Shown in pieces: positions 18,226 through 63,956 of a DNA stretch of 64,000 nucleotides. The stretch is taken from assembly GCA_963664875.1 (NCBI GenBank), contig OY761611.1, positions 1,536,001 to 1,600,000 on the forward strand, written 5' to 3'. The notes beneath the pieces were generated by a model. It made no database searches. It saw only the letters and a program-made list of their open reading frames with translations, and was not told the origin of the DNA. The position numbers were made by a program, and so were the translations under genes. Source of the DNA: Candidatus Kapaibacterium sp. Lineage in GTDB: Bacteria; Bacteroidota; Ignavibacteria; Kapaibacteriales; UBA2268. Numbering within the stretch: position 1 is the first letter of the stretch; each line of letters opens with the position of its first letter.

Positions 18226-21200
18226 CTATTTGCTAATTACAAATGTTTTTGTAATAGTAGTTCCGTTTGCTTCCATAGTAATCATATACATACCTGATGT
18301 AAGATTGGAAGAGTTAGCATCTATTGTTAAATCTCTTGTACCTTCAAGCATACCTTCGAATAAAGTAGCTACTCTTCTGCCCGCTGCATCAGTTAGATAA
18401 ACAGCAACATTAGAAGCCATTCTGTTTTCGATTGTAACAGAAGCAACACTTTGTACTGGGTTTGGAGTAACATCGTTAATTCTCAAGCCTGCTATAGTGT
18501 TTTCTGTAACGCTTGATGTACCTGTTTTCTTAGTAATAGTAAGCTGTATGTTATCGCTTTTTACTTCGCCGCAGTCGTTCGCAACTTTGCAGGTATAAAT
18601 ACCGGCATCAGTTAATTCAGCAAGAGCTTTAACAAATTTAGCATCTGTTGCGCCTGCGATTTCAACTCCGTCTTTCATCCATTGATAAGTTTCAGCTGTT
18701 GCACTATTTGCACTTACTTCGAGAGTAATTGCAGATTCTTCTTCAACATCTACCATAGCATTAGAAACTAATACTACTTCAGGTGCAGTTTGTACTTCTA
18801 AAACAGCTTCGTCTGAAACTACTTCATAGCGAGTACCTAAGAATTCAGAATAGCATTCTACAGAATATTTACCTTCCATAGCAAGAGCCGAAGAAGCAAT
18901 ATTCAAAGTAGCAGTTTTTGTACCTTGATAGTCTGCATTGTCGTTAAGTTTGTTTCCGTTAAAGTACCATTGATATTCTACTGTCATATGAATATCAGAA
19001 GGATCTGCATCAACTGTAAACTGAGCAGGTGCACCCTGGCAAGCTACAACAGCTTCAGGTTGAGTAGCAATTTCGATTGTATGTTCATCAGTGATATAAG
19101 CAGTTTTTGAAGTTGCAGTACCGCACTGACCTGTAACTACACAATAATAACCTACAAAATCAGTAGCTTCAACGTTATTGATAGTCAACAATGAAGATTT
19201 TGCACCTTGTATTCTGCCATTATCTTCGAGTTTCTGATTGCCTTTGTACCATTGGAAATCATGTTGATAATAAGGAGGAACAAGACCTTTCATGTGAGCT
19301 TCAACAAGGAATGTTACGTTATCGCCGTCAATAGCTCTTACAGAAGTAGGTTGGCGAGTAATTTCAGTTTCTCTAAGTACATAAAGAATAGCTGTCTCAG
19401 TAGTGAAATCATTTACACCGTTGCAATCCTCAGCTTTAACAAGACAAGAGTATTCTGCTATATCGCTATAGTCAGTTTCGTCTATATACAATATTGCTGA
19501 TTTAGCAAATTCATTGTTTTTGATTTCTTTTCCATCTTTCAACCATTGGTATGAAATGATTTCGCCAACACCATTGCCTGCAACACTAAAGCTTACGCTT
19601 TCGTTACGGCATACAACCTGAGCTTCAGGGTTATGAGTGATTGCAAAAGCATCCGGCACAGAAATATCAATGTCATTTTCGCTATTAGTAAGCACTTGGC
19701 ATTCGTTATAGCCAATAGCTACACAGCGGTATCTTCCATTATCATCAAAAGAGATATTTTCTAAAACTAACTCAGGAGTAGCAGCAGTTGGGTTTTCTGA
19801 AGCATCAATATCTGCCCAGTTACCAACTACATTTTTCTGCCATTTATAACCAATCAAATCACCAAATTCGATAGAACCTGTGAATCTAAGAGTTTGTCCC
19901 TGGCATAAAGAATTTACATCGAATTCCGGAGTAGTTTTTACACCACTGATTTTGTCATAAACAACTACTTCGATTGGCTCTGAAGTCAATTCGACAGGGT
20001 GGTGAGTAGCGCAAAGTTCTTCACCGATTACTCTTACTCTATATTTACCTTCTGCATCTTTGTGTTCAACTTGGTTTAAGTCGATTGTGTAGTTGTTAGT
20101 AAATACTGCTTCGCCTTCACTTGTCAAATCTACATATTGCTCTGTTTCTTCGTCGTATTTTTGCCAAACATAGCTCAAAGCAAAGTCCGCTTCAACTCCG
20201 AAAGTTAAAACATCTTGATTTGCACAACCTGTGATAACATTTTGAGGGTTTTGAGTAATTATAACCGGATGTTTCACTTGAATTGCAACTTCCTGTGTTT
20301 GAATTTCTTCTGCACCCTGATATCTAAATGAAGCACGGTAAGTACCTTCGTGTTCGCCTTTGATAGGATCTACAGTAAGTTTCATTCCGTTTTTGGAAAC
20401 CAAGTAAGAATCATCATCTGTGTCAGTAATTACCTGACCATTGTGTTCCCATTGTGCAACCAAACCATTGGTAATTGTTCTTTCAATACCATCAGCAAAA
20501 GTACCTACCAAAGCATAAGTCATAGAAACTGATTGATCTTCGCAATAAACAGTTTCACCACCGATGATAGTAAGTTCGTCACCTAGTGAAACAGTAACAT
20601 CTACAACATCTGCACCAATGTATGTATCAGCACCTGCAGGACGAGTTTCGCCATCTATGTCAGTATCAATACCTGTAATTTTTGGAGCTCTTAAGGCTAA
20701 GTCATTGATAGAGTTTCTGTCTAAGTGAAGACCATCAACAAAGTAAACTTTATGATCAGTACCGTTTGCTTCCATTGAAGTTAAAGTCTGCCAATCAGTA
20801 AAATTATAGATTTTACTACCGTCTAAAAATGCAATAGCACCACCGGCTACTGAAGCATCTTCGATATCATAAGCATTGTGGTTAAGGGTTTTGGCTGTTA
20901 GCATATTATAGCCAGCGTAAAGAATATAAGCAGGAGCATCTCCGCCCAGCCCAAAAAAGCTGTTAGAGAAGATATTGCTTTGTACATCCCAACTGTCAGA
21001 ATCACTTCCTACCTGTACACAAGCTGAACGATCAGTTGCATATGATGAATTGAAATCATTGAAGGTTCCTTCCAATCGAATTGTATTATGATGCAAAATC
21101 ACATTGTCTGCACCATCATCAAACTGGACACCATATACATAAACCCATTTGTCTTGAGTTCCTGTTTCTTTATGTGCAGCCAAATTATTAATAGCATTGT

Positions 21201-23088
21201 TTGTAATTTTTGCACCACTAGCATCGCCACTGAAATAGATACCAACTGCAAAGTCGTCAGAATAAGCACCGTATCTAGAATCAAGAACAAGATTTGAAAT
21301 CATGTTCATGTTTATATTCAAATTTTCACTATCCTCAGCACCAATACCGGCTATTATATTTGTGTAAGCTTCACCAACCATTGTTAGATTGTTGATTTGA
21401 TTATTCATTAGAGATGAACCGCTCGCATTTAAAATATATATACCCTTAGCTGCATTCATATTATTGATATTGTTGCCGCTCACTTGAGAATCTGCAATAC
21501 CATCTAAGTACATAACTTCTGTGTAAGTGCCACCAACAAATGTATTACCTGTAACTGTTGCACCGGCAATATCATCTGCTTCGATAGCTCTGTCTGCAGT
21601 CAAATTTGTAAATGTGTTGTCGGAAATAATAGTTTTTGGAGAGTTATCTATGTCGATAACATAAGAAACATCTTCGCCTGCATTCGCAAAAGTGTTAGAA
21701 GTGATAACTGCTTTCGCAGCTTCAGTATCAGTTTCATTGTTGTTATAAGACACAAATATAGCTTTTTCGTCAAAAGACTCAAAAGTATTGCCTGAAATTA
21801 CTAAGCCGTCCGTATATTTTGTGTATATAGCAGCATCCGCAAACAATCCAGTCGCATTAGAAAAAGTATTTCCGGAGATAATAATTCCACGAATCATTTC
21901 AGTTTCAGCACCGGCTTGTGCTTTAAAAGCGGTAGAAGCATTGCTGAAATCAACATTAGAAACAACTATATTTGAGTGACCTGAAGAGCCGTTTGCCGCA
22001 GATAAGTCAGCACCCCAAATTGCGATACCGTTAGATTCGTCAGCTGAAGTGCCGTCTGTAGCTCCATCTATTTTGATATTAGCAAAAGAGATATTTTGAG
22101 AGCCGTTATCTTCGAAGTCAGTAAGCAAGATAGCAGTACCATTTGAAGCAGCTGTGTTGTCAAAGGTTAGATATTTGCCGTCTGTTGCTTCCAAATACAT
22201 TGGTTCGTCAGATGGTTCTTCTTCGTCGCCTGTAGGAGCAACATAATCAGGATTGTTAGTAACAAGATTACCAACAAAAGTAATATTATCTGCACCCATA
22301 ATGTTTATCAAAGCTTCGTCAGCAAAGTTACCGGAAATAGTACGAGCTGCACCAAATGCTTTGATAGTAAGGCTTCCGTTATCAAACTCATGAAGAGCTA
22401 CATTATCTGTTTCTGTTATATCAGAAACTATAAAGGCAGTAACGCTACCTTCCAAATCGCGTAGGTTTATGTCAGCGAAAAGTTCGCCAAGAGTTGCATA
22501 ATCAGCTTCAGGAGTGTTACCTACCCACACAGTATCTTTGACCGGAACAAGAGCACTTAAGCTAATGTCATCAATCAATACACCGTTTTTGTTGCTTGCT
22601 GTAGCTTCGAAAGCAATCTGATAAGTTTCTGTTACGCCTTTCAGCCTGATACTTTCTTTTTCCCATGCTGTAGTAGGATCTGCAAATTCTTCCTGAAGAA
22701 CCCACTCAGCTTCTGCATTAGCTTTTGTGAATACACGCAATGTATCTGCTAAATCTGCTTTAGCAAACTGTGCTCTGTAAAATTCCAAAGTAGTAACACC
22801 ACCCTGATAATTTTTCAAATCAAATAATGGCATTACCAAACGTGTAACACCCGGATTTGCATTATGCATAATAGCATTGTTAGTACCACTATTAGCTGCA
22901 TCAGGAAATCCGGTTGGTGAACCTGTGCCAACTGACCAGTCATAAGTTCCGGTCATATACTGCTGAGTCCAGCCGTCAGGTAATGCGCCGGATTCGAAAT
23001 CTTCAGTAATGATTTCTACGGCACCAAGATTTGCAAGGCAAATTACGATAGCAAATGCCACAAGAGCCAATGTTTTAATTGGTTTCAT
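18226..23088 (-). CDS. Giant T9SS-secreted protein: choice-of-anchor J/MAM-like domain, acidic right-handed beta-helix, 7 Ig-like domains, T9SS CTD
   Basis: Signal peptide, EDFESGALPDGW...LIDDISL domain, ISGNTF repeats, seven QW.K/xG.Y.C Ig repeats, VTPNPV...LTSGMY...KTFVISK. Confidence 0.85.
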   Translation of the reverse strand: MKPIKTLALVAFAIVICLANLGAVEIITEDFESGALPDGWTQQYMTGTYDWSVGTGSPTGFPDAANSGTNNAIMHNANPGVTRLVMPLFDLKNYQGGVTTLEFYRAQFAKADLADTLRVFTKANAEAEWVLQEEFADPTTAWEKESIRLKGVTETYQIAFEATASNKNGVLIDDISLSALVPVKDTVWVGNTPEADYATLGELFADINLRDLEGSVTAFIVSDITETDNVALHEFDNGSLTIKAFGAARTISGNFADEALINIMGADNITFVGNLVTNNPDYVAPTGDEEEPSDEPMYLEATDGKYLTFDNTAASNGTAILLTDFEDNGSQNISFANIKIDGATDGTSADESNGIAIWGADLSAANGSSGHSNIVVSNVDFSNASTAFKAQAGAETEMIRGIIISGNTFSNATGLFADAAIYTKYTDGLVISGNTFESFDEKAIFVSYNNNETDTEAAKAVITSNTFANAGEDVSYVIDIDNSPKTIISDNTFTNLTADRAIEADDIAGATVTGNTFVGGTYTEVMYLDGIADSQVSGNNINNMNAAKGIYILNASGSSLMNNQINNLTMVGEAYTNIIAGIGAEDSENLNINMNMISNLVLDSRYGAYSDDFAVGIYFSGDASGAKITNNAINNLAAHKETGTQDKWVYVYGVQFDDGADNVILHHNTIRLEGTFNDFNSSYATDRSACVQVGSDSDSWDVQSNIFSNSFFGLGGDAPAYILYAGYNMLTAKTLNHNAYDIEDASVAGGAIAFLDGSKIYNFTDWQTLTSMEANGTDHKVYFVDGLHLDRNSINDLALRAPKITGIDTDIDGETRPAGADTYIGADVVDVTVSLGDELTIIGGETVYCEDQSVSMTYALVGTFADGIERTITNGLVAQWEHNGQVITDTDDDSYLVSKNGMKLTVDPIKGEHEGTYRASFRYQGAEEIQTQEVAIQVKHPVIITQNPQNVITGCANQDVLTFGVEADFALSYVWQKYDEETEQYVDLTSEGEAVFTNNYTIDLNQVEHKDAEGKYRVRVIGEELCATHHPVELTSEPIEVVVYDKISGVKTTPEFDVNSLCQGQTLRFTGSIEFGDLIGYKWQKNVVGNWADIDASENPTAATPELVLENISFDDNGRYRCVAIGYNECQVLTNSENDIDISVPDAFAITHNPEAQVVCRNESVSFSVAGNGVGEIISYQWLKDGKEIKNNEFAKSAILYIDETDYSDIAEYSCLVKAEDCNGVNDFTTETAILYVLRETEITRQPTSVRAIDGDNVTFLVEAHMKGLVPPYYQHDFQWYKGNQKLEDNGRIQGAKSSLLTINNVEATDFVGYYCVVTGQCGTATSKTAYITDEHTIEIATQPEAVVACQGAPAQFTVDADPSDIHMTVEYQWYFNGNKLNDNADYQGTKTATLNIASSALAMEGKYSVECYSEFLGTRYEVVSDEAVLEVQTAPEVVLVSNAMVDVEEESAITLEVSANSATAETYQWMKDGVEIAGATDAKFVKALAELTDAGIYTCKVANDCGEVKSDNIQLTITKKTGTSSVTENTIAGLRINDVTPNPVQSVASVTIENRMASNVAVYLTDAAGRRVATLFEGMLEGTRDLTIDANSSNLTSGMYMITMEANGTTITKTFVISK

Positions 23089-23923
23089 AACTCCATCTTG
23101 TAAAAATTATTAAACAGTACAATTAGTATTTCAAAATCTCAATGAAACTTTACAATCTTTACAATAGCTTCTTAAAGACTGTATTTTTGTATTATTATCA
23201 TGTTATCTCTTTTAAGTATTATATAGGATATAGAATTCTATAATAATACTTTATAACCACATACAATAGACACATATATCCGAAACACGTCTCAAATAAG
23301 GGTTTTAACAAATTCTTAAAAATGCTTTTAGTGATAATAAGAACAAGTATTTTGCAATTTTTATTTCTATTGTCAATTATTATAGACGTTACTATAACAC
23401 ATAAACACTCATCTATTTCAATACTAACTAAAGAATATTATATTTCCAAATCAATAAAATTAATCACACAATTACTGCTTATTAGGTAATAGCTTTGGGT
23501 AGGGTCTTTTATGAGCAACTTATGATTGTTCATTTTTCTTGCTTGTAGCTACACAAATGGTATAGTTTGAAATAATCATATTTTACAGCAATATTGACTA
23601 TACAAAAGCCTAGTGCAATTCCGTTCATATTTATCAATCTGTAATAATAATTATTGTCTATCGGCTACAAATTATTTGTATAAATAATTATCACTGTTTT
23701 ACATCTTTTTCTTCCTATGGTGATAATTTTAGAGCTATGATGAATACTTCTTCCTCTTAATGTTCAGCTTTGCTGCAATAAATATCATCGCAAAAGTAAC
23801 GCAGTATCATTTCATATTTTTATTAGTAATCAAAATTGACAAATCAATCCATATTTTTTTTCGTTCTTTCCCTTCACATACCTATCTTTGTATGATTATG
23901 TTAAATACTATACAAATCAAAAT

Positions 23924-25174
23924 ATGACAACTCTAATAAGAAATATCAGCTCGTTGGTAACAGTCAATGCAGCCGGCAGTACTCACAAAATCGGCTCTCA
24001 AATGCAGGAGATAGGAGAAATCAAAAATGGTGCTATCCTTTTTGATGAGAAAGTTTTGTGGATTGGAAACGACTTGGAGGCAGAAAAGCTCTTAACTGAA
24101 AATAAAATTCAGCCTAACAAAATTATCAATGCCAATGGCAAAACAATACTGCCCGGGTTCGCGGATTCCCACACTCATATAGTTTTCGCAGGTAATCGTT
24201 CCGGTGAGTTCGCAAGGAGACTCCGTGGCGTGAGTTATGTTCAAATTGCTGAAGAAGGTGGCGGAATACTCACAACAGTAAAAGGCACTCGCGAATCTTC
24301 TATCGAACAGCTCGCTGAAAACGGAAGAAAATTGGCACATTCGATGATGAAACACGGCACTACTTCAGTAGAAATCAAAAGTGGATACGGACTTTCTTTC
24401 GAAGCTGAAATAAAACAGCTTAAAGCAATCAAAATGCTTAAAGAAGAACTTCCCATGAATATTAAATCCACTTTCCTCGGTGCACACGATTTCCCTCCGG
24501 AGTTTAGAGATGATAGAGATAGATACGTGGATTTATTAGTTAATGAAATAATTCCTTATGTTGCGGAAAACAAGCTTGCTGATTATTGCGATGCTTTTGT
24601 TGACAAAGGTTACTATACTGTTGAGCAGGGCGAGCGTATTTTCCGTGCTGCTGCTGATCATGGTATGAAACTAAAAGTACATGCAGACGAGCTTGCAGAT
24701 GTCTCTGCTGCTCAGCTTGCTGCAAAAATGAGAGCTGTATCAGCTGATCATCTTTTGTTTGTGTCTGATGCCGGTATCAATGCTCTCAAAGAGGCAGGTA
24801 CTGTTGCTACATTGCTTCCAGGGACAGCATATTTCATAAGAATGCCTTATGCTCCTGCGAGAAAGTTAATAGAAGCAGGTGCTACTGTAGCCCTTTCAAC
24901 TGATTGTAATCCGGGATCATGTTTTACAGAAAATATGCAAATGATTTTGTCGCTATCGGTTATAAATATGGGAATGACAGCCGAAGAAGCCCTGGTAGGT
25001 GCAACTCTCAATGGTGCTAAAGCAATGGAAATATCTGAGTTTACAGGTTCGCTGGAAGTCGGCAAGCAAGCAGATTTTATAGTAGCCGACATAGATTCAT
25101 ATACCGATTTATTCTATCATTTCGGTATCAATCATGTAAAAGAAACTTGGATAAAAGGTAAACAAATAATATAA
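23924..25174 (+). CDS. hutI: Imidazolonepropionase
   Basis: PGFADSHTH, GGGILTTV, EIKSGYGL, FLGAH, HADEL, SADHL, ALSTDCNPGS. Confidence 0.96.
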   Translation: MTTLIRNISSLVTVNAAGSTHKIGSQMQEIGEIKNGAILFDEKVLWIGNDLEAEKLLTENKIQPNKIINANGKTILPGFADSHTHIVFAGNRSGEFARRLRGVSYVQIAEEGGGILTTVKGTRESSIEQLAENGRKLAHSMMKHGTTSVEIKSGYGLSFEAEIKQLKAIKMLKEELPMNIKSTFLGAHDFPPEFRDDRDRYVDLLVNEIIPYVAENKLADYCDAFVDKGYYTVEQGERIFRAAADHGMKLKVHADELADVSAAQLAAKMRAVSADHLLFVSDAGINALKEAGTVATLLPGTAYFIRMPYAPARKLIEAGATVALSTDCNPGSCFTENMQMILSLSVINMGMTAEEALVGATLNGAKAMEISEFTGSLEVGKQADFIVADIDSYTDLFYHFGINHVKETWIKGKQII

Positions 25175-53420: not shown

Positions 53421-53912
53421 TTACAAATTGCCAGCCACAAAATAAGCCAATCCATCTTTAACATGAGCAGTACCTTTAAGTGCAAATTCTTTTTCACCTA
53501 CTATTTTGATTAGGCCTTTGCTTGCAAAATTACCGCCTGCATCCAAAACAATATATGCCTGTCCTTCTCCTACGAATACAAGCACTTTACCTGAATTTAC
53601 CAATGATTTTGCTTTTTGTGCATTAACTCTTCCGTCTCCGCCCATCGCTAAATCATCTAAACTTGCGACATAACCTTTCAAAGGCAGAGCATTGTAATCT
53701 CTTTCTGCAATCACTTCTTTTGTATTATCAACCTCAATTGATGCTTCTGACGCTGATTCGGTCTGTGTTGCTTCTGCTGCCGCATCAGTAGTAGTTGCTT
53801 GCTGCTCAGTAGCCGGAGCATCTTTAGCCGCATCTTGTTTTTCTTCTCCACAAGAGACAAGTAAAAAGCCTGCTACCAGACATACTAATAAATATTGCTT
53901 TATGTAATTCAT
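53421..53912 (-). CDS. Lipoprotein, paralog of the neighbouring gene
   Basis: Lipobox LLVSC, Ala/Thr/Glu linker, C-terminal domain sharing DAGGNFA with the 53954-54421 product. Confidence 0.8.
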   Translation of the reverse strand: MNYIKQYLLVCLVAGFLLVSCGEEKQDAAKDAPATEQQATTTDAAAEATQTESASEASIEVDNTKEVIAERDYNALPLKGYVASLDDLAMGGDGRVNAQKAKSLVNSGKVLVFVGEGQAYIVLDAGGNFASKGLIKIVGEKEFALKGTAHVKDGLAYFVAGNL

Positions 53913-53953: not shown

Positions 53954-54421
53954 TTAGATTGCATATATCCCGTTAGCGATGATATATTTTAAGCCTTTTA
54001 CAGTTTTCACTTTACCGGCTATACCGACTTTAGAAGCTTCAGCTAACTTAGCAAGTTTATTACCTGCGAAATTGCCACCTGCATCGAATACAAAATAAAT
54101 CACACCTTTTGACAAAAATGCAATTGGCTTGCCATAAGAAAGTAGATTTTCAGCAGTTGCTTTATCGATGCGACCGTTGCCACCTGTTAGCAAATTTTCA
54201 ACACTGATAACCTGACCTTCAAAATCAGCTTTAAATCCTGCCGGTGCTTTCGGCATATCGCTTGCAGGCTTGTCTGTATTTACAGCATCGACAGCAGCGG
54301 TTTTTGTTACAGTACTTGTTACTGCTTTTGTGCTCTGATTTGTATTGATATTAATCTGAGCAAAAACAAAACCTGCAGTTACAAGCAAAACTGCTAACAT
54401 AATTACGGCTCTTTTTAGCAT
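53954..54421 (-). CDS. Secreted protein, paralog of the neighbouring lipoprotein
   Basis: Signal peptide ending in VFA-Q, low-complexity linker, shared C-terminal domain. Confidence 0.8.
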   Translation of the reverse strand: MLKRAVIMLAVLLVTAGFVFAQININTNQSTKAVTSTVTKTAAVDAVNTDKPASDMPKAPAGFKADFEGQVISVENLLTGGNGRIDKATAENLLSYGKPIAFLSKGVIYFVFDAGGNFAGNKLAKLAEASKVGIAGKVKTVKGLKYIIANGIYAI

Positions 54422-54681
54422 AAAACATCTCCTTGTGACTTAAAATGAACATTTAGTTTCTTGCAAATATTCTATTCTTACTACATGTGTATTGTCGAAT
54501 AATTCCTGAGAATTATTGCTTTGCAAAATCTTGATAATACAATCAATCTATAGCAACTGAAATATAATTGCAATTTAGCTAATTATATGAAATAATCACT
54601 TAATAATCAACACAAATATCGGATTCGACTATATTTTTACAATAATCCTTTTTAGTGACATCGGAACAGACTCGTATAAAT

Positions 54682-54703
54682 AAAAAACCTCCCCGAAGGG
54701 AGG
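54682..54703 (-). terminator. Intrinsic terminator (UUCG tetraloop)
   Basis: Minus strand CCTCCC-TTCG-GGGAGG-TTTTTT. Confidence 0.9.
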
Positions 54704-54739
54704 CTTTCTAATTGTACTGTCAATATGAGATATTGTTTT

Positions 54740-57700
54740 TTATTTTACAAGAATCATAGCTTTAGCTGCTGCTGCACCTTCCGTTTCTACTGTGTAGAAA
54801 TAAGTGCCGCTGCTTAGGTTATAAGCTGATGCATCCAAATCTATTCTGTTTTCACCGGCTACTGCCTGTCCGTCGAAGATTACAGCCAATTTACGTCCGT
54901 TTGCATCTGTCAATGTTACTTTTACATTTGCTGCAGTTGGTACGTTAAATTTGATTGTTGTAGAAGTTTCAAACGGGTTAGGTTCGTTGCCAAGTAATTC
55001 ATAGCCGCTACCTGCTTGTGCAAATACGCCTGTGTTTGTTTTCTTAGTTACTGTTACCTTAGAAACATCAGACATTCTATCACCGCAGTCATTTGTAGCT
55101 ACGCAGTAGTATTCGCCTGCATCTGCATATTTCACTACGTCAACAGTATAAATTGCTTCTGTAGCACCGGCGATAGCTGCACCGTCTTTGTACCATTGGT
55201 ATGCAAGGTCGCTTTCGCTGTCAACCATAACTTCCAATGTCAATACTGCATCTGTTTCTACTGTTACGTCTGCTTCAGGAACAACTGTGAATATAGGAAG
55301 TAAGTTTACATCTAATACTGCATCTTTTGAGCTTGCAGATTCATTTGTTCCGTTCAAAGTAGCAACTACATGGTAATCACCTGCATGAGCCGGCATTACA
55401 TTTGTAACAAGCAATTTGTTTGTAGTAGCACCACTGATTTCGCCACCATCTGTTAATGCTGTTCCGTTGAAATACCATTGGTAATCAACTGTGATAGTAG
55501 GATCTGTAGAAAGTGCACTTACTTCAAATGTAGCGTCACTGCCTTCGCAAGCGTCTTTATCCATTGGGTTCATTGTTATTGATACAGTAGGTACGTCGCT
55601 AATAGATACTCTTACTGATTCGTCAGTGCCGCATTGACCTTTTACGATTACATAGTAATCATTTGACAAGTCTGACATTTCTACATTGTTGATAGTTAGC
55701 AATGAAGAATGAGCACCTTGGATTCTGCCGTTATCTTCTAATTTCATAGTTCCTTTGTACCATTGGAAATCATGTTGGTAGTATGGAGGAACTAAGCCTT
55801 TCATGTGTGCTTCTACTGATAATGTAGCTGTTTCGCCAAGAGCAACTTGAACTGCTTCTGGTTGACGAGTAATTTTTGTTTCCTGCATTACATAAAGTAT
55901 AGCTGATTCACTTGTGAAAGTCAATTCGCCACGGCAGTCTTCTACTGCTATTTCGCAATAGTATTGACCTACGTTGTCAAGATTTGCATTGTTGATGATA
56001 AGCATTGCATCGTCTGCATATTCGTTTTCTGTGATGCTGATGCGTTTGCCGTCTTTATACCATTGGTATCCATGAATTTCACCAAGACCATTGCCGATAA
56101 CTGAGAAGTGTACTTCTTCGCCACCGCAAATTACTTGTGATTCAGGATTTTCAACTAATTCGAATGTTGGAGGTACGATAAATTCTACAGCTTCTGTAAA
56201 TACTTCCAAATCGTAACATTCTGCATTACCCATAACTTTACATCTGTAACCACCGGAGTTAGTTTCATCTACGTTTGTAAGTTTGAAGTTTTGAGTTACT
56301 GCAGTTGGATTTTCCTGTGCTGTAATGTTGTACCACTGACCACCTTGGTATTTCTGCCATTGGTAGCCACGAACAGTACCCTGAGCTTCTGCGTAGAATT
56401 CTAAGTCCATACCGCCGCAAAGGTTTTCAGGTTCGAAATAATATTCCATTTTTTCTTCAGTAATAGGCAAATAAAGCTCTACTTCTGTTTCTGTATCTGT
56501 GTAAAGCACTGAAGGGTATTTAGGTTCGCAAAGTTCGTCGCCGACAACTTTGGCACGATATTTACCATCAGCTTCTGCTTTTGTTAATTCAGTGAAATCA
56601 AGTACAAATGTATGACCTACGGCACCTTCGATATCAGTCCACATACCATCGATTTCTTTCTGCCATTGTACACCAAAAGCATTTGTAGTTTCTACACTTA
56701 AAGTCAAATCGTGGAAACCTTCGCAACCGATGTAGCTTTCTACCATGCTTTCGCTAACGATATGAACAGGTTCAACTACATTGATAGTTTTAGTTGAAGT
56801 AGCAATTGGTTCTAAATCCATAGCCCAGAAAGTAGCGTGGTAGTCACCTGCATTTTCTACTGTAAGGTCGTTTATAATTAGACGACTTCCGCTGATAGTG
56901 TAATTATCTATATCAGTATCTACTATTGGAAGACCATTTTTGTACCATTGAGTTTGAACCGCATTGCCAAGAGTTCTTTCGATACCATCATCAAACTGAC
57001 CGCCTGCTCCAAAGATGAATTGTACCTGCTGTGTACCTTCGCAAAGACCTTCAGGTCTGTCAGGGTCAACAATTAAATCAGTAGTAAGAGATAGGCTAAA
57101 GCTTGTAATGTCAACACCCATTCTGTTATTTGCAGCTGTTCTTGTTTCGCCGTCAATATCAGTAGGAATAGAAACTGCTGTGATTGGAGGGCATAGAACA
57201 TCATCACTTATTGCTCCGCCACCATCAATGTGCAAATCAGGAGTCAAAGTAACTTCCATTGATGTAGAATTATCACCAAATCCGGCTGCTTGCCAAGAAT
57301 CCAAGTATGGGTATGTTGTGCTGGTTTCCCAATTATATGCTATAGAGCCAAGAGGAGCATATAAAAGATTATAATCAGCATCTGCTAAAGATGTTGTTCC
57401 TGTATATCCATCGTTACCTGCAAGGTAGATACAGTATGTTTCAGTACCACTACCAACCATTTCGTTGACCAAAATGTTGTTTTTGATAATGTGCCCACTT
57501 GAGTTTGCATAGTAGCCACCAAGAGTTATACAAGAAGAGAACGCACCTTGCACACCACCTGCTGTAAATGGTCTATTCATGTGAATTGTGTTTTGATAGA
57601 TTTCCAAATCACTTGCCTGGTAGCACATGATACCAGATACTGCATAATAATAGTAGTTATAAGATCCTGATGAGTAATTTGCACTTCTTCCATAAATATC

Positions 57701-58978
57701 AGACATTCTGTTGTGATATATTTTTTGTCTGTCAGAACCCTTTGTTGAGTTACCATACAAGTATATACCAGCAGTATAACCTGCAGTTGAACCTGTACCT
57801 TCATACATATTTTCAATATGGTGAATGTAGTTATCATGAATCAAGCAAGGATCCATGTAGTACATATAAATACCAATAATTGAAGAAGTTGAAGTAGTAG
57901 AGTAACGTTTTGAAACATTATAAATCTCATTGTGGTGAATATCGTAGCTACCATAAGTAGCTGTGGAAGAACTATATAAGTACATTCCATAATAAGTAAT
58001 ATCATGGATAGTGTTGTATCCCACGTTGATATAATCATCACTATCATTGTAGTATAAGTACATACCATAAGAAACTTGAGAAATATCATTGTGCTCAATA
58101 TTTACAGAACCGGTGTTGTATCTGATATACATACCATAATATGGATAATATGCTGTTGTACTGTAAGTTGATGAGCCTTTGATTTTATTATTAGTTGAAG
58201 TTAAATTGTCAGCATAGCTTGCATAGTATCCATAGTACATGTATCCACCTTCAACATCTATGTTGTTGTTATCCATCACCAAATTTCGAGTGTAGTAAGT
58301 GTAGATACCATAATACATATATGGTGCATCCAAGTCATTACTTGAAATTGTGATATTTTCTTGTCTTGTCGCAGACTGTCCATAAATATAAAAACCATAA
58401 TAAGCTTTGTCAAAAAGGTTATTGTGAATGGTAATGTTATCAGAATAACCATCTGAGTAGTACATTCTAATACCATAAGAACTAGATGGGTTACCAGTCA
58501 ATGCACCTGCAGAAATTCTACAGTTTTGCACTGTAACTCCGTCATTTGAACCTTTGAATTTGACACCAACGGAAGTGTTAACTGTGTGATGAATCCAGAG
58601 GCTACGGTCAGTCCCTTCTCCGCCCTGGCTACCATCTAATACAACATTTGAGCATCCGTTAAATTCGATAATACCATTTGTACCACCAAATGAACCCTGA
58701 ATAGTATATTCACCTGTCGGGTAAATAGTTACAGAGCCGGAAGTGCCGAATGAATTAAGAGTAGCTGATGCCGTAAGCGTTTGGTCGCTTATGATTTGCA
58801 ACACTACATCACCGCTGACACCATTCGAGTTGATTGCATCAAATGCTAATTTGATATCAGCATAATCACCACCGGTACCTACTGTTTTTGTACCGGAAAC
58901 TGCTGTTTGCGCAAGTGCCTGAGCTGCAAGTAGTGCAGTCATAGCAAAAATTGAGAAGATAAAGTAGAAACGCTTCAT
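54740..58978 (-). CDS. Giant T9SS-secreted protein: Tyr-rich right-handed beta-helix, 7 Ig-like domains, T9SS CTD (paralog A)
   Basis: Signal peptide, SGTKTVGTGGDY cap, (I)xxNxI / YGxYxY beta-helix repeats, seven QW(Y/Q)(K/F) Ig repeats, NEPNPFETSTTIKF...LSSGTYFY...KAMILVK. Confidence 0.88.
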   Translation of the reverse strand: MKRFYFIFSIFAMTALLAAQALAQTAVSGTKTVGTGGDYADIKLAFDAINSNGVSGDVVLQIISDQTLTASATLNSFGTSGSVTIYPTGEYTIQGSFGGTNGIIEFNGCSNVVLDGSQGGEGTDRSLWIHHTVNTSVGVKFKGSNDGVTVQNCRISAGALTGNPSSSYGIRMYYSDGYSDNITIHNNLFDKAYYGFYIYGQSATRQENITISSNDLDAPYMYYGIYTYYTRNLVMDNNNIDVEGGYMYYGYYASYADNLTSTNNKIKGSSTYSTTAYYPYYGMYIRYNTGSVNIEHNDISQVSYGMYLYYNDSDDYINVGYNTIHDITYYGMYLYSSSTATYGSYDIHHNEIYNVSKRYSTTSTSSIIGIYMYYMDPCLIHDNYIHHIENMYEGTGSTAGYTAGIYLYGNSTKGSDRQKIYHNRMSDIYGRSANYSSGSYNYYYYAVSGIMCYQASDLEIYQNTIHMNRPFTAGGVQGAFSSCITLGGYYANSSGHIIKNNILVNEMVGSGTETYCIYLAGNDGYTGTTSLADADYNLLYAPLGSIAYNWETSTTYPYLDSWQAAGFGDNSTSMEVTLTPDLHIDGGGAISDDVLCPPITAVSIPTDIDGETRTAANNRMGVDITSFSLSLTTDLIVDPDRPEGLCEGTQQVQFIFGAGGQFDDGIERTLGNAVQTQWYKNGLPIVDTDIDNYTISGSRLIINDLTVENAGDYHATFWAMDLEPIATSTKTINVVEPVHIVSESMVESYIGCEGFHDLTLSVETTNAFGVQWQKEIDGMWTDIEGAVGHTFVLDFTELTKAEADGKYRAKVVGDELCEPKYPSVLYTDTETEVELYLPITEEKMEYYFEPENLCGGMDLEFYAEAQGTVRGYQWQKYQGGQWYNITAQENPTAVTQNFKLTNVDETNSGGYRCKVMGNAECYDLEVFTEAVEFIVPPTFELVENPESQVICGGEEVHFSVIGNGLGEIHGYQWYKDGKRISITENEYADDAMLIINNANLDNVGQYYCEIAVEDCRGELTFTSESAILYVMQETKITRQPEAVQVALGETATLSVEAHMKGLVPPYYQHDFQWYKGTMKLEDNGRIQGAHSSLLTINNVEMSDLSNDYYVIVKGQCGTDESVRVSISDVPTVSITMNPMDKDACEGSDATFEVSALSTDPTITVDYQWYFNGTALTDGGEISGATTNKLLVTNVMPAHAGDYHVVATLNGTNESASSKDAVLDVNLLPIFTVVPEADVTVETDAVLTLEVMVDSESDLAYQWYKDGAAIAGATEAIYTVDVVKYADAGEYYCVATNDCGDRMSDVSKVTVTKKTNTGVFAQAGSGYELLGNEPNPFETSTTIKFNVPTAANVKVTLTDANGRKLAVIFDGQAVAGENRIDLDASAYNLSSGTYFYTVETEGAAAAKAMILVK

Positions 58979-59048
58979 TACGTTCTCCGATTAGTGTGAG
59001 TAATAATATTTTATTTCTTTAACATAACCTTGATTTCACTATTTCTGT

Positions 59049-59085
59049 CAATATAAGACTAATTGTTTTAAAATGCAACGTTACA
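59049..59085 (-). promoter_or_regulatory. Putative sigma70 promoter with overlapping palindrome (paralog A)
   Basis: Minus strand TTGCAT (59073-59078), 17 bp, TATATT(G) (59049-59055). Near-palindrome TGCAACGTTACA at 59074-59085. Conserved upstream of paralog B. Confidence 0.6.
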
Positions 59086-59528
59086 AAGTCGATTTTTATT
59101 ATATATTTTTTTCGTTTTTATTGTCTCCAAAGATTTATAGCTACTAATTTTTGTAATTCACACAAATTGTAGAGACTTTTTTTTGCAATTATTATGTTAT
59201 TTTTGATTTTCTATCAAGCTGTTATTTCAATATTATAAACATACTCTGATTGCTCATATATAGCTCTAAATATAGCTATATAAGTACTTATATTGTCATT
59301 ATTTTTATTTTTCAAAGCTTTATTAGACAGATATTTCTCAAATCACTTTCTTTAATAGACCTCATATTTGTATATTTAGTGTAGAATATCTATTTTATTC
59401 AATACTTTTTTGCTACAATAGGTATGTTACTTAGCTAAATTATTTTTTTATAGAAATTTTTGATTTTTTTTGATTCCGATTGCAGATATGTTTACTTGGC
59501 AGTCATTTTGGATAATTAGAGTGAGGGC

Positions 59529-59553
59529 AAAAAAAAACCTCCCCGAAGGGAGG
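59529..59553 (-). terminator. Intrinsic terminator (UUCG tetraloop), same hairpin as 54682-54703
   Basis: Minus strand CCTCCC-TTCG-GGGAGG-T9. Confidence 0.9.
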
Positions 59554-59594
59554 TCTTTGTAAGTGTATTGTCGTATCAATAAGAGAGAATATTC

Positions 59595-62500
59595 TTATTT
59601 AACAAGGATCATAGCTTTGGCTGCTGCAGCGCCTTCTGTTTCTACTGTGTAGAAATAAGTGCCGCTGCTTAGGTTATAAGCTGATGCATCCAAATCTATT
59701 CTGTTTTCACCGGCTACTGCCTGTCCGTCGAAGATTACAGCCAATTTACGTCCGTTTGCATCTGTTAATGTTACTTTTACATTTGCTGCAGTTGGTACGT
59801 TAAATTTGATAGTTGTAGAAGTTTCAAACGGGTTAGGTTCGTTTCCAAGTAATTCGTAGCCGCTACCTGCTTGTGCAAATACGCCTGTGTTTGTTTTCTT
59901 AGTTACTGTAACTTCTGATACAGCTGATTTAGTCATACCGCAATCATTTGTAGCTACGCAATAGTATTCGCCTGCATCTGCATATTTCACTACGTCAACA
60001 TTATAAATTGCTTCTGTAGCACCTGCGATTGCTGCACCGTCTTTGTACCATTGGTATGCAAGGTCGCTTTCGCTGTCAACCATAACTTCCAATGTCAATA
60101 CTGCATCTGTTTCTACTGTTACGTCTGCTTCAGGATTAGCTGTAAAGATTGGTAATAATTCTACCATCAAAGCAGCTGCTTTAGAAGTAGCTTTTGCACT
60201 TGTACCGTAAAGCATTGCTTCAAGTGTATAGTTACCTGCACGAGCCGGAGTAATATCCATTACTTCCAATTTATTGCTTGTAGCACCTTTGATAGCACCA
60301 CCGTCAACCAATGCTGTTCCGTTGAAGTACCATTGGTATTCTACAGGAATTGTTGCGTCAGTTGATAAAGCAGTACCTTCGAATGTTACATCGCTGCCTT
60401 CGCAAGCGTCTTTATCCATTGGATTCATTGTTATAGATACTGTAGGAACGTCACTGATAGATACTCTTACTGATTCGTCAGTGCCGCATTGACCTTTTAC
60501 GATTACATAGTAATCATTTGATAAGTCTGACATTTCTACATTGTTGATTGTTAGCAATGAAGAATGTGCACCTTGGATTCTATCGTTATCGACTAATTTC
60601 ACATTACCTTTGTACCATTGGAAATCGTGTTGGTAGTAAGGAGGAACTAAGCCTTTCATGTGTGCTTCTACTGATAATGTAGCTGTTTCGCCAATCATTA
60701 CTTGTACTGCTTGTGGCTGACGAGTAATTTTTGTTTCTTGCATTACATAAAGTATAGCTGATTCACTTGTGAAAGTCAATTCGCCACGGCAATCTTCTAC
60801 TAAGATTTCGCAATAGTATTGACCTACGTTGTCAAGGTTTGCATTGTTGATGATAAGCATTGCATCGTCTGCATATTCGTTTTCTGTGATGCTGATGCGT
60901 TTGCCGTCTTTATACCATTGGTATCCATGAATTTCACCAAGACCATTGCCGATAACTGTGAAGTGTACTTCTTCGCCACCGCAAATTACTTGTGATTCAG
61001 GATTTTCAACTAATTCGAATGTTGGAGGTACTTCAAAGTGTACTGCTTCAGTAAACACTTGTAAGTCGTAACATTCTGCGTTACCGATTACTTTACATCT
61101 GTAACCACCTGAGTTAGTTTCGTTTACATTTGTAAGTTTGAAGTTTTGAGTTACAGCTGTTGCATTTTCTTCTGCAGTAATGTCATACCACTGACCACCT
61201 TGGTATTTCTGCCATTGGTAGCCACGAACAGTACCCTGAGCTTCTGCGTAGAATTCTAAGTCCATACCGCCACAAAGGTTTTCAGGTTCGAAGTAGTATT
61301 CCATTCTCTCTTCAGTAACCGGTAAGTAAAGCTCAACTTCTGTTTCTGTATCTGTGTAAAGCACTGAAGGGTATTTAGGTTCGCAAAGTTCGTCACCGAT
61401 AACTTTTGCACGGTATTTACCATCAGCTTCTGCTTTAGTCATTTCTGTAAAATCAAGAGTAAATGTTTTGTTTGTAGCACCTTCGATATCAGTCCACATA
61501 CCGTCGATAAGCTTCTGCCATTGAACGCCAAATTCATTTGTAGTTTCAACACTTAGAGTCAAATCATGGAAGCCTTCGCAACCTATGTATTTTTCTACCA
61601 TGTTTTCGCTAACGATATGAACAGGTTCAACTACAGTAATAGTTTTTGTGCTTGTAGATATTGGCTCTAAATCCATAGCCCAGAAAGAAGCATGGTAAGT
61701 ACCGGCATTTTCTACTGTAAGGTCATTAATAAACAGACGGCTTCCGCTGATAGTGTAGTTATCTGTATCCGTATCTATAATTGGAAGACCATTTTTGTAC
61801 CACTGTGTTTGAACTGCGTTACCAAGAGTTCTTTCGATACCGTCATCAAACTGGCCACCGGCTCCAAAGATAAACTGTACTTGCTGAGTACCTTCGCATA
61901 GACCTGCCGGTTTGTCAGGATCAACAATCAAATCATTAGTTAGAGCCAAAGTAAAGTTAGTAATATCTATACCCATTCTGTTGTTTGTAGCGGTTCTTGT
62001 TTCACCATCCATATCCATTGGAATAGAAACTGCTGTTACAGGAGGGCAAAGCAATTCATCACTGATTGCACCACCACCATTTAAGTGACCATCCCAAGTC
62101 AATGTTACTTCCATTGCTGTAGAGTTAGCATCTTTGCCTGTAGCTTGCCATGAATCAAGATAAGCATAAGTTGTTTTTGTTGATTCATTGTATGCAATAG
62201 CACCCAAAGGAGCATATAAAACGTTATAGTCAGAAGTAGCAATATTTGAGCTATATGCTGCTGTTGAACTAGCATATTTACCCTGATAGATACAATAAGT
62301 TTCTGTACCGCTACCAACCATAGTATTTACAAGAATGTTATTTTTAATAATTGTTCCTGTTGAAGACTGATAGTAAGGATAATCAGTAATACAAGCAGAT
62401 TTACCACCTTGCATACCACCATTAACGAATGGTAAATTCATATTGATTGTATTTTGGTAAATTTCTGTATAGCGTGCGTTATATAACAATATACCGGATG

Positions 62501-63848
62501 GCATACAATAGTAAGAGTAGAAGTAATCATAAGTAGTATAATAATATGGATTAGCCTGCTCTGTGATGTCATGGATATTGTTATGATAAATTCTGTTATA
62601 ATCAGTAACGCCTGTAGTATTGCTTGAGCCATAAACTAATATACCTGCAGTATAGTAACTGTAAGTTCCTGTACCTGTATAAGGTTTGATTAGATTATAG
62701 ATGTGGTTGTCGTGAATATCAGAGTTACCAACATAGCCTAACCACATACCAACATTATATGTGTATTGGTAGTCATATCCTTTACAGTCAATATTACTTA
62801 TGGTATTACCATAAATGTCATAAGTTCCTGTATAATTTGGATCGCGATAGATATATAAACCGTATTGGCCAATACGATCAATTGTGTTATTTGCAATTTC
62901 TGTCTGCAAAGTTGAACGGTTATAATAAATATACATACCATACTGAACCTGGCGGATATTGTTGTTGTTGAACTCCAAAGATCCTTCAGGATAATAACAC
63001 ATTAGACCATAGTATGGATAGTAGTAAGATGCGTTATAAGTCAAGCTACCGATTACAGTATTACCATCAAAAACACCATTTTGTACATAGTAATTGTACA
63101 AAGCATAGTACATATAACCGTCTTGTGCGTCAACTGTATTGTTCAGTAAATTCAAATTCCCAACATAATACAGATATGAGCCACAGTACATATAAGGAGC
63201 ATCAAACAAGTTATTAGAAACTGTGATATTAAGCTGTCTTGTAGTAGGTTGGCCATAAATATAAATACCATAATAAGCTTTGTCAAAAAGGTTGTTATGG
63301 ATAGTTACATTTTGAGAATACCCATCAGAATAATACATTCTAACACCATTACAAGAGCTCGATGGATTTCCTGTCAAAGGACCTGCAGAGATTCTACAGT
63401 TTTGAACATCGATACCATTATTTGAGCCTTTGAATTTCACACCGATTGCAGAGCTGTTTGTGTTATGAATCCAAAGAGATCTGTCAGAACCTTCACCACC
63501 TTGGCTACCATCTAAGACTACATTTGTACAACCGTTAAATTCGATGATACCCGCACTTGATAGTGAACCTTCGATAGTATATTCACCTGTAGGGTAAATA
63601 GTAACTGAGCCGGAAGTACCGAAAGAGTTAAGAGTAGCTGCTGCAGTAAGCGTTTGGTCGCTTATGATTTGCAACTGTACATCACCGCTGATACCATTAG
63701 TATTGATGGCATCGAAAGCTAATTTGATATTAGCGTAATCACCGCCGGTACCGACTGTTTTTGTACCGGAAATTGCTTGCCCGAAGAGTTGGGTGCCTGA
63801 TAAGAACACCATTACAAGTAGAGCAAAAATAGAGGATAAACGTTTCAT
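59595..63848 (-). CDS. Giant T9SS-secreted protein: Tyr-rich right-handed beta-helix, 7 Ig-like domains, T9SS CTD (paralog B)
   Basis: Same architecture as 54740-58978. ATG 63848 with GGAG RBS. C-terminal about 95 aa identical to paralog A. Confidence 0.88.
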   Translation of the reverse strand: MKRLSSIFALLVMVFLSGTQLFGQAISGTKTVGTGGDYANIKLAFDAINTNGISGDVQLQIISDQTLTAAATLNSFGTSGSVTIYPTGEYTIEGSLSSAGIIEFNGCTNVVLDGSQGGEGSDRSLWIHNTNSSAIGVKFKGSNNGIDVQNCRISAGPLTGNPSSSCNGVRMYYSDGYSQNVTIHNNLFDKAYYGIYIYGQPTTRQLNITVSNNLFDAPYMYCGSYLYYVGNLNLLNNTVDAQDGYMYYALYNYYVQNGVFDGNTVIGSLTYNASYYYPYYGLMCYYPEGSLEFNNNNIRQVQYGMYIYYNRSTLQTEIANNTIDRIGQYGLYIYRDPNYTGTYDIYGNTISNIDCKGYDYQYTYNVGMWLGYVGNSDIHDNHIYNLIKPYTGTGTYSYYTAGILVYGSSNTTGVTDYNRIYHNNIHDITEQANPYYYTTYDYFYSYYCMPSGILLYNARYTEIYQNTINMNLPFVNGGMQGGKSACITDYPYYQSSTGTIIKNNILVNTMVGSGTETYCIYQGKYASSTAAYSSNIATSDYNVLYAPLGAIAYNESTKTTYAYLDSWQATGKDANSTAMEVTLTWDGHLNGGGAISDELLCPPVTAVSIPMDMDGETRTATNNRMGIDITNFTLALTNDLIVDPDKPAGLCEGTQQVQFIFGAGGQFDDGIERTLGNAVQTQWYKNGLPIIDTDTDNYTISGSRLFINDLTVENAGTYHASFWAMDLEPISTSTKTITVVEPVHIVSENMVEKYIGCEGFHDLTLSVETTNEFGVQWQKLIDGMWTDIEGATNKTFTLDFTEMTKAEADGKYRAKVIGDELCEPKYPSVLYTDTETEVELYLPVTEERMEYYFEPENLCGGMDLEFYAEAQGTVRGYQWQKYQGGQWYDITAEENATAVTQNFKLTNVNETNSGGYRCKVIGNAECYDLQVFTEAVHFEVPPTFELVENPESQVICGGEEVHFTVIGNGLGEIHGYQWYKDGKRISITENEYADDAMLIINNANLDNVGQYYCEILVEDCRGELTFTSESAILYVMQETKITRQPQAVQVMIGETATLSVEAHMKGLVPPYYQHDFQWYKGNVKLVDNDRIQGAHSSLLTINNVEMSDLSNDYYVIVKGQCGTDESVRVSISDVPTVSITMNPMDKDACEGSDVTFEGTALSTDATIPVEYQWYFNGTALVDGGAIKGATSNKLEVMDITPARAGNYTLEAMLYGTSAKATSKAAALMVELLPIFTANPEADVTVETDAVLTLEVMVDSESDLAYQWYKDGAAIAGATEAIYNVDVVKYADAGEYYCVATNDCGMTKSAVSEVTVTKKTNTGVFAQAGSGYELLGNEPNPFETSTTIKFNVPTAANVKVTLTDANGRKLAVIFDGQAVAGENRIDLDASAYNLSSGTYFYTVETEGAAAAKAMILVK

Positions 63849-63919: not shown

Positions 63920-63956
63920 CAATATAAGAACTTTATACAATATTTACAACGTTACA
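63920..63956 (-). promoter_or_regulatory. Putative sigma70 promoter with overlapping palindrome (paralog B)
   Basis: Minus strand TTGTAA (63944-63949), 17 bp, TATATT(G) (63920-63926). TACAACGTTACA at 63945-63956. Confidence 0.6.

Follow-up and report, generated by a model that had tools for sequence, protein, structure and literature searches.

A tandem pair of putative type IX secretion cargo proteins in a Kapaibacterium genome: old tyrosine-rich beta-helix heads on stalks apparently homogenised by gene conversion

Two adjacent genes of Candidatus Kapaibacterium sp. encode large proteins in which a near-constant stalk of immunoglobulin (Ig)-like repeats carries a divergent, tyrosine-rich beta-helix head, and the question raised by this locus is how such a contrast arose and what it serves. 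The genes, here called A and B, lie in a stretch of 64,000 nucleotides (positions 1,536,001 to 1,600,000 of contig OY761611.1, assembly GCA_963664875.1), which is referred to as the window and to which all coordinates below apply. An earlier note on this DNA had likened the pair to antibodies and to the variable lymphocyte receptors (VLRs) of lampreys, and had proposed a diversified repertoire of receptors or adhesins, variable in the head and constant in the stalk. The evidence from related genomes points elsewhere. With moderate confidence, A and B are read here as anciently diverged surface paralogs exported by a type IX secretion system (T9SS), namely non-catalytic adhesins that bind with their tips, probably to glycans, and that have two stable specificities.

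The two genes are in tandem on the minus strand, A at 54740-58978 (1412 aa) and B at 59595-63848 (1417 aa from its ATG, the open reading frame (ORF) reaching 63860 from a TTG). Their stop codons are 4855 bp apart, as stated in the earlier note, which had described neighbours of about 1415 aa offset by that distance at their 3' ends. Direct repeats between the genes keep the 4855-bp spacing in the 3' part and are 4873-4876 bp apart in the 5' part. In A, the first 24 residues (58907-58978) form a Sec-type signal peptide, read by eye without a predictor in both proteins, in which MKR and a hydrophobic stretch lead to ALAQ before a T in A and to LFGQ before an A in B. The N-terminal cap and first coils of the beta-helix follow (residues 25-200; 58379-58906), then the type-specific, tyrosine-rich part of the helix with its Asn ladder, its YYGxYxY strand and three long loops at residues 356-366, 389-401 and 429-446 (residues 201-560; 57299-58378). 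A C-terminal cap and linker with a conserved DxDGExR motif and no Pfam match (residues 561-640; 57059-57298) joins the head to a stalk of seven predicted Ig-like repeats of the Ig_3/I-set kind, each of about 92-103 aa (residues 641-1318; 55025-57058), and the protein ends in a T9SS type A C-terminal sorting domain (CTD) (residues 1319-1412; 54743-55024). B has the same architecture with a B-type head; its head module, which aligns to A residues 25-640, occupies 61914-63776 and its seven-repeat stalk and CTD 59598-61913. In a global alignment the two proteins are 84% identical over residues 25-200, 48% over 201-560, 75% over 561-640, 89% over 641-1320 and 100% over the CTD (the last 92 residues), with the lowest values in 50-column segments falling to 28-46%. 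The likeness of the N-terminal and C-terminal parts claimed in the earlier note is therefore confirmed, as is the overall plan of a surface protein that the T9SS exports and whose Ig-like stalk bears a beta-helix head, on the basis of profile matches and a structural model of the head described below.

The history of this pattern can be read from relatives. A scan of GTDB species genomes gave 10 loci, in which all ORFs of at least 150 aa were compared by BLAST. Four related Kapaibacterium-like metagenome-assembled genomes (MAGs) each contain two or three tandem copies and one distant paralog with a MAM domain; there are three copies in L001 and in L002/L006, two in L004 and two in L003, the second of which is cut by the contig end. 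Across genomes the B-type heads (win_B of the window, L001_1, L003_1 and L004_1) are 78-99% identical and the A-type heads (win_A, L002_1, L003_2p and L004_2) 56-94% identical, and at least three head types exist among the relatives. Stalk identity is 89-99% inside a genome and 77-87% from one genome to another. Trees were built with IQ-TREE in quick mode under LG+G4, omitting P0007 and P0008 as near-duplicates of L001_1 and L001_2 and, for the stalk, the truncated L003_2p. The head tree contains an A-type and a B-type clade with 95 and 100 support, respectively, in the Shimodaira-Hasegawa-like approximate likelihood ratio test (SH-aLRT), and the stalk tree contains paralog pairs for each genome with support of 99-100. 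In approximately unbiased (AU) tests of groups defined with the identity matrices and trees already in view, a clade of win_A with win_B is rejected for the head columns (p 6e-169) and groupings by type are rejected for the stalk columns (p 4e-5 and 5e-87).

The boundaries between the two signals can be placed along the protein. In a 40-residue sliding map against the L004 pair, which stops at residue 1400 and leaves 1401-1412 outside, residues 1-40 group by type, 41-200 by genome, 201-240 give no clear signal, 241-560 group by type (weakly at two steps of the map), 561-1160 by genome, 1161-1240 by type or ambiguously, and 1241-1400 by genome. The signal peptide of A follows type and not genome, and residues 25-200 taken together follow genome and would have been converted. 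All four paralog pairs contain identical stretches of 60 nt or longer (the longest being 128, 267, 357 and 360 nt), and none of the four ortholog pairs does. Synonymous divergence (dS) of the stalk is 0.03-0.46 between paralogs and 0.76-1.14 between orthologs, a signature of gene conversion. Paralogs that resemble one another more than they resemble orthologs within a defined segment, incongruent trees and long identical tracts characterise concerted evolution, and all three are found in this family. As far as sequence comparison can tell, the constant stalk is thus the product of segmental gene conversion within each genome and the different heads that of ancient paralogy.

A second island of low identity between A and B lies within the otherwise converted stalk, at Ig repeat 6 (A residues of about 1161-1240; 55379-55618) and the matching part of B. 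Nucleotide identity there is 0.62-0.72 and dS reaches 1.85; identity is low in the L004 pair too, and the L001 and L002 pairs have identical runs of 169 and 152 nt in this stretch. The island may represent either an Ig domain linked to type or a tract that escaped conversion.

Estimates of selection by the Nei-Gojobori method agree with an old origin of the head types. Between A and B the stalk has a dS of 0.46 and a nonsynonymous divergence (dN) of 0.07 and the CTD a dS of 0.17 and a dN of 0, and in the head dN is 0.5 and dS is saturated. Since dS in the head is saturated, the divergence of the two heads appears to be old rather than fast, and the contrast between head and stalk would reflect age, not positive selection. 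Only L003 and L004 are close enough (dS about 0.2) for the ratio dN/dS (omega) of the heads to be estimated. The B-type head, with 5 nonsynonymous and 40 synonymous changes, has an omega of 0.03, and the A-type head, with 24 and 45, one of 0.12; the stalks have 0.11 and 0.09. The differences between the L003 and L004 heads have no hot spots and are scattered over all structural classes. Diversifying selection on the heads is thus contradicted in the closest ortholog pairs, where purifying selection is evident. At larger distances conservation of the B-type head equals that of the stalk (dN 0.15 versus 0.17) and conservation of the A-type head is lower (dN 0.32-0.38 versus 0.14-0.15 for the stalk), with dS saturated so that no omega can be given.

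The head itself is a right-handed parallel beta-helix. PF13229 (Beta_helix) matches A with 84.8 bits (cut-off 25.9), and the B head aligns with that of A over its whole length. An AlphaFold2 model of A residues 25-640, made from an alignment of 16 heads, has a predicted local distance difference test (pLDDT) score of 88.6 and a predicted template modelling (pTM) score of 0.89. Its strand pattern, read by eye, comprises an N-terminal cap with one helix, about 13-14 three-stranded right-handed coils and a C-terminal cap. Coils are about 24-40 residues long and bear the motifs NxI and YYGxYxY: a strand that ends in an invariant Asn is followed by a short second strand, a loop, and a third strand of the form Y-Y-G-x-Y-x-Y, and the invariant Asn, one per coil across the 16 heads, forms the Asn ladder. 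The loop before the tyrosine strand measures 0-18 residues in A and 0-21 in B. In the nomenclature of pectate lyases the Asn ladder would sit in the T2 turn, the tyrosine strand would correspond to PB1, and the long loops ahead of it would be T3 loops, the walls of the groove in which beta-helix proteins usually bind ligands. Foldseek against the PDB returned generic beta-helix proteins only, with probability 0.9-1.0 and, among the matches listed, 7-15% identity and a query-normalised template modelling score (TMq) of 0.15-0.37; these include AlgE4 and AlgE6, PL6 alginate lyases, the Sf6, Dettilon and CBA120 tailspikes, RbmB and the adhesin PfbA. A search of the PDB with the head sequence gave 0 matches at E<=1.

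The tyrosine content is as high as first counted in the earlier note (about 50 in some 240 residues, or about 20%), the richest 240-residue segments containing 50 in A and 51 in B. Over A residues 165-470 there are 59 tyrosines in 306 residues (19%), compared with 5% in the stalk. Counted from the conserved Gly of the tyrosine strand, aliphatic residues predominate at positions +1 and +3, and Tyr occupies +2 in 8 of 9 coils, +4 in 7 of 9 and -1 in 6 of 9. By strand alternation, positions +1 and +3 should line the core, the tyrosines at +2 and +4 should form two outward ladders of about 8 rungs, and the tyrosine at -1 would face the core. These tyrosines do not form a variable aromatic face, as had been supposed, since they are more conserved than the rest of the head: Tyr is kept in B at 42 of the 59 positions, versus 108 of 247 for other residues. 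Across 15 family rows, 24 of the 59 positions have Tyr 12 times or more and 11 have it no more than 5 times; 34 of the 59 lie in modelled strands and 25 outside.

Where the types differ is a separate matter. The view that the scaffold is kept and the loops vary holds in part: some loops differ in length between A and B (for instance 18 versus 21 residues), but A/B identity is equal in modelled strands (83/168) and non-strands (68/138). Positions that are invariant inside each type and different between types number 31 and are found at 14 of 82 positions in the S2-S3 loops, which precede the tyrosine strand, and at 8/96, 3/44, 3/96 and 3/60 positions in the other classes. They cluster in the three consecutive long loops of A at residues 356-366, 389-401 and 429-446, and the type-specific loops include charged residues. 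The tyrosines thus appear to be a conserved part of the scaffold, and the loops beside the tyrosine sheet to carry the type. As to the expectation that variable tyrosines would gather on one face or its loops, the tyrosines are conserved, and type-specific positions are most frequent in loops beside one sheet, on which the ladders are predicted to point outward.

For the stalk, Pfam models on the whole proteins find Ig_3, I-set and Ig_2 together with Por_Secre_tail in both A and B (Ig_3 at 3.2e-37, I-set at 1.5e-27). When the seven stalk segments are searched separately, Ig_3 or I-set is near or above cut-off in 4 of 7, weak (E about 5e-3) in 2 and absent in 1. A hidden Markov model (HMM) built from repeats 4-7 finds seven domains in each protein; repeats 4-7 match themselves by construction, repeats 1 and 3 have independent E-values of 5e-8 to 2e-7, and repeat 2 is marginal (0.099 in A, 0.008 in B). 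The CTD exceeds the curated cut-offs of TIGR04183 (the NCBIfam T9SS type A sorting domain; 36.1 bits in A and 36.0 in B, cut-off 23) and of PF18962 (Por_Secre_tail; 29.5 and 30.6 bits, cut-off 27). These profiles make seven Ig-like repeats per stalk likely, the number given in the earlier note along with the CTD, all seven being found by the family-built model with repeat 2 as the marginal one. Searched against the PDB, the stalk (A residues 641-1320) matches 9ncf_S (7.7e-33), the phage tail protein 9c2d_S (2.6e-30) and titin 3b43 (4.9e-15). The entry 9ncf_S is named 'Immunoglobulin-like domain protein', and it and 9c2d_S are far better matches to the stalk than titin or contactin. With a phage tail protein among the best matches, the same Ig subtype would seem to be in use on phage tails.

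Within each genome the number of copies is small. Upstream of the first array copy, no family member is present within 5-10 kb in any of the four related loci, and in all four arrays two minus-strand genes of about 250 aa occupy that place (DUF481 and a short-chain dehydrogenase/reductase (SDR) in L004). Where a third copy exists it is downstream in the array, and the window contains no third copy downstream of A. The window ends 152 nt upstream of the ATG of B, and the earlier note had for that reason allowed that the array might continue; since the relatives lack an upstream copy and none follows A, the array most likely consists of A and B only. Copy counts cover the related genomes and, for the genome studied here, the 64-kb window. 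The paralog count proposed as a gauge of a repertoire thus came out at two or three tandem copies per related genome, orthologously conserved.

A mechanism can be proposed that accommodates these results. A and B would be exported by Sec and then recognised by the T9SS through the type A CTD, after which they would probably be tethered to the surface at the C-terminal end of the stalk; for Porphyromonas, a passage in PMC9143113 describes type A CTD cargo as anchored to anionic lipopolysaccharide. The beta-helix, right-handed and of about 13-14 coils, would then be kept at a distance from the cell by the seven Ig-like domains. Its sheet with the repeated YYGxYxY strand is conserved in both types, and the long loops entering that sheet are its most type-specific part; a conserved tyrosine-lined sheet with type-specific rim loops suggests a binding groove and two stable specificities. 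Aromatic platforms on this face of a beta-helix typically bind sugar chains, which makes glycans the most likely ligand class, and the head may be a non-catalytic binding module for polysaccharide or another repetitive surface, with A and B carrying different, stable specificities. The head types would have arisen before at least four related species separated, and purifying selection would maintain them; gene conversion inside each genome would time and again have made N-terminal caps, stalks and CTDs alike, giving rise to the appearance of a constant stalk with different heads.

Three other explanations were weighed against this reading. The antibody- or VLR-like repertoire of the earlier note, with a hypervariable tyrosine-rich head under diversifying selection, a constant stalk and perhaps a longer array, draws on heads of 48% identity above stalks of 89%, on a tyrosine content of about 20%, on the presence of at least three head types across relatives and on an A-type head that has diverged more between species than the stalk has. 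Against it stand the two or three copies in each related genome, the lack of a further copy upstream in 4 of 4 related loci, heads that are orthologous types common to several genomes, omega values of 0.03 and 0.12 in close orthologs, the saturated dS that makes the A/B head divergence old, tyrosines more conserved than other residues, and a stalk constancy for which gene conversion accounts. It is therefore considered very improbable, and of the earlier inference only the plausible binding or adhesin role of the heads survives, whereas the diversified repertoire with a hypervariable head does not.

The heads could instead be surface enzymes acting on polysaccharides (lyases, hydrolases or epimerases) with two substrate specificities, the tyrosine sheet and loops forming the groove. 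The top structural matches do include AlgE4 and AlgE6 epimerases, PL6 lyases, tailspike depolymerases and RbmB at probability 0.9-1.0, the tyrosine strand would be the sheet of the substrate groove in the nomenclature assumed above, and the type-specific loops contain charged residues. Yet a TMq of 0.15-0.37 and 7-15% identity among the matches listed are at the level of a generic shared fold, PDB sequence matches at E<=1 are nil, and Pfam and NCBIfam contain no polysaccharide lyase (PL), glycoside hydrolase (GH) or alginate epimerase family that matches the heads. The invariant columns in the central coils of the 16 heads are N, G, Y, I and S only, with no charged residue among them; the sole invariant charged residue within the coils is in the last one. 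A conserved pectate-lyase or glycosidase site, named in the earlier note as a finding that would overturn its own proposal, is therefore not seen in family profiles or in the invariant columns of the central coils, and the enzymatic explanation is judged unlikely. A similarly low probability is given to the third explanation, in which the exposed tyrosine ladders are an interface for self-association, so that heads pair or pack side by side, in the manner modelled for ice-nucleation proteins (PMC3196904), into a surface lattice or fibre and bind no foreign ligand. A tyrosine sheet conserved in all types is what a shared structural interface would be expected to show, and engineered tyrosine ladders are described in a part of PMC3196904 as promoting dimerisation of OspA. 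Oligomerisation of the heads would nevertheless be conjecture, the ice-nucleation model in the same part of that source concerns another solenoid, which has one tyrosine ladder only (PMC3196904), and type-specific loops beside the sheet that are conserved within each type fit distinct ligands better.

The reading of A and B as tip-binding adhesins has points against it as well. B has no Pfam Beta_helix match at E<=0.1, and the groups compared in the AU tests were chosen with the trees in view. Between species the A-type heads are only 56-66% identical, versus 79-80% for the stalk, and faster or episodically adaptive evolution of the A-type head may have occurred at the deeper distances at which dS is saturated. 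The outward orientation of the tyrosine ladders is deduced from in/out strand alternation, not from model coordinates, and both ligand class and binding by the heads are predictions. Many of the best structural matches are enzymes, and a type-specific catalytic site could still be housed in the loops. Among the 17 ORFs of the window and loci that were scanned there is no T9SS component, no search having been aimed at that machinery, and the neighbouring genes (DUF481, SDR, amidohydrolase, RecQ and a two-component system) offer no functional link and no hint of a substrate. An extension of the adhesin reading is put forward tentatively, as a possibility that is more doubtful than the reading itself: the conserved double or triple tyrosine ladder of about 8 rungs, with its type-conserved flanking loops, would be a new binding platform in which the loops set specificity, and selection would have kept at least three ancient types distinct over a species-level timespan against conversion that homogenised their surroundings, including the N-terminal cap.

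Signals upstream and downstream of the genes suggest how they are transcribed. A promoter-like or operator-like motif, GTAACGTTG-N20-TATATTG, is present upstream of A (59049-59084) and of B (63920-63955), both on the minus strand, and is followed by GGAG; the window contains 2 matches to it versus 0.01 expected. GTAACGTTG includes an AACGTT palindrome, about 20 nt before TATATTG. In its exact form it has no other match in the window and none upstream of the MAM-type paralog, and GTAAC(G/T)TT is found in 11 of 12 aligned upstream regions of family genes from five genomes; the motif may be an operator or promoter specific to the family. Downstream, terminator-like hairpins with the same CCTCCCTTCGGGGAGG core and a following T run are found on the minus strand after B (59533-59558; free energy -16.7 kcal/mol, z -4.1) and after A (54681-54710; -19.1 kcal/mol, z -3.9). 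Because each gene has its own promoter-like motif and terminator-like hairpin, A and B appear to be separate, similarly controlled transcription units. A third TATATTGWCA box lies in the spacer between A and B (59288-59298, plus strand), in the orientation opposite to the two promoter-like copies (3 in the window versus 0.23 expected), and forms with 59046-59057 a 12-nt inverted repeat 229 nt apart. With regard to an invertible promoter for phase variation, the spacer contains only short AT-rich inverted repeats of 12-19 nt that are 79-92% complementary.

The wider neighbourhood contains other members of the same export class. The distant MAM-type paralog is encoded at 18226-23088 on the minus strand (1620 aa; a MAM domain, a beta-helix, an Ig stalk and a T9SS CTD, 43% identical to A in the stalk) and is paired with an amidohydrolase gene at 23888-25174 on the plus strand. 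In all four related genomes the amidohydrolase and the MAM-type paralog come directly after the array (compare L004, 14674-21609), whereas in the window the pair is about 29.5 kb (25268-54421) away from it, which suggests an insertion or rearrangement in this lineage. Two small minus-strand ORFs downstream of A, at 53421-53912 and 53954-54421 (163 and 155 aa), have neither a Pfam match nor a counterpart in the related loci. A further T9SS-CTD protein at 836-4501 (minus strand, 1221 aa) has beta-propeller-like and ASH/HYDIN-type Ig-like matches, and the window encodes at least four T9SS cargo genes in all.

Database searches place the pair in a small family. Of 7999 proteins scored in a word-indexed search with the head, 19 reached E<=1e-3, and 9 of these are full-length relatives; A was among the proteins returned, B and the MAM-type protein were not. 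With the stalk as query there were 130 matches at E<=1e-20, of which only 10 (the query included) are at least 62% identical, several of them on one contig. The close family thus numbers about 10 proteins and is restricted to a few Kapaibacterium-like MAGs. The head module as such is far more widespread: at E<=1e-3 it has 568 cluster representatives, many of them belonging to giant multi-module proteins, and the names are generic. Tyrosine content among 132 of these relatives has a median of 18 per 240 residues, at least 35 being present in 20 and at least 45 in 4; as about 20 of the 132 are enriched in this way, such a surface would not be confined to the A/B family. Judged by the names in the search results, no family member is a characterised protein, and a literature search yielded no paper on a tyrosine-rich beta-helix adhesin and none on these Kapaibacterium proteins, those on the T9SS being of a general kind; among the matches listed for tyrosine ladder and beta-helix were ice-nucleation and antifreeze proteins, the structure of tubulin-binding cofactor C, and amyloid prediction.

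A and B define a small uncharacterised family of tip-displayed beta-helix proteins with a tyrosine-rich, conserved face in Kapaibacterium-like bacteria, and that family is an obvious candidate for a determinant of what these uncultured organisms attach to. Should the tyrosine-ladder sheet prove to be a platform for a ligand, it would be a new recognition surface in the beta-helix repertoire. The case also carries a caution of a general kind, as a 'variable head, constant stalk' seen in a single genome can come from old paralogy and segmental conversion with no diversifying selection, and a comparison of a few related genomes is enough to tell the two apart.

Several known systems share features with this family. 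The resemblance to antibody complementarity-determining regions and lamprey VLRs lies in a Tyr/Ser/Gly-rich surface on a repetitive scaffold held by Ig-fold domains, and ends there, the A/B family having no diversification mechanism, large repertoire or hypervariable positions and its tyrosines being conserved. Ice-nucleation proteins have an outward tyrosine ladder along a beta-solenoid, as described in parts of PMC3196904 and PMC9418140, as well as a GYGS motif with TQTA and SLTA water-ordering faces (in the same part of PMC3196904) and 16-residue repeats (likewise in PMC9418140). An outward tyrosine ladder on a beta-solenoid is predicted for A and B too, but their coils are about 24-40 residues long, with an Asn ladder, two or three tyrosine ladders and no Thr arrays. 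Membership of the ice-nucleation family was considered and rejected, 16-residue GYGS repeats and Thr arrays being absent from both proteins. With PfbA of Streptococcus pneumoniae, phage tailspikes, PL6 lyases and AlgE epimerases the heads share a right-handed parallel beta-helix with an Asn ladder, and only that generic fold, since A and B have no signature of a catalytic family and no evident trimerisation domain.

An evolutionary parallel is found in the adhesin paralogs babA/babB and homA/homB of Helicobacter pylori, for which segmental concerted evolution is described in a part of PMC3960876: in babA/babB, according to that part, one segment follows allele or type from strain to strain and another is similar within a genome through gene conversion (PMC3960876). 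In A/B, similarly, heads cluster with their type and stalks and CTDs with their genome. The two cases differ in that babA/babB encode outer-membrane beta-barrel adhesins and A/B unrelated T9SS cargo, and in that A and B are in tandem, both flanks of their variable part would have been converted and the pattern spans species-level divergence (ortholog dS about 1); unlike babA/babB, the A/B family gave no sign of chimeric head swapping or of phase variation. An architectural parallel is other T9SS type A CTD cargo that combines a beta-helix with Ig domains, named 'right-handed parallel beta-helix repeat-containing protein' by NCBI for relatives in Bacteroidota MAGs, which has the same signal peptide, generic Beta_helix or NosD-type head, Ig_3/I-set repeats and Por_Secre_tail CTD. 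Compared with such cargo, which is common, A and B are unusual in composition, with an extreme 50-51 tyrosines per 240 residues versus a median of 18, and in the clean, head-sparing gene conversion that appears to have shaped them.

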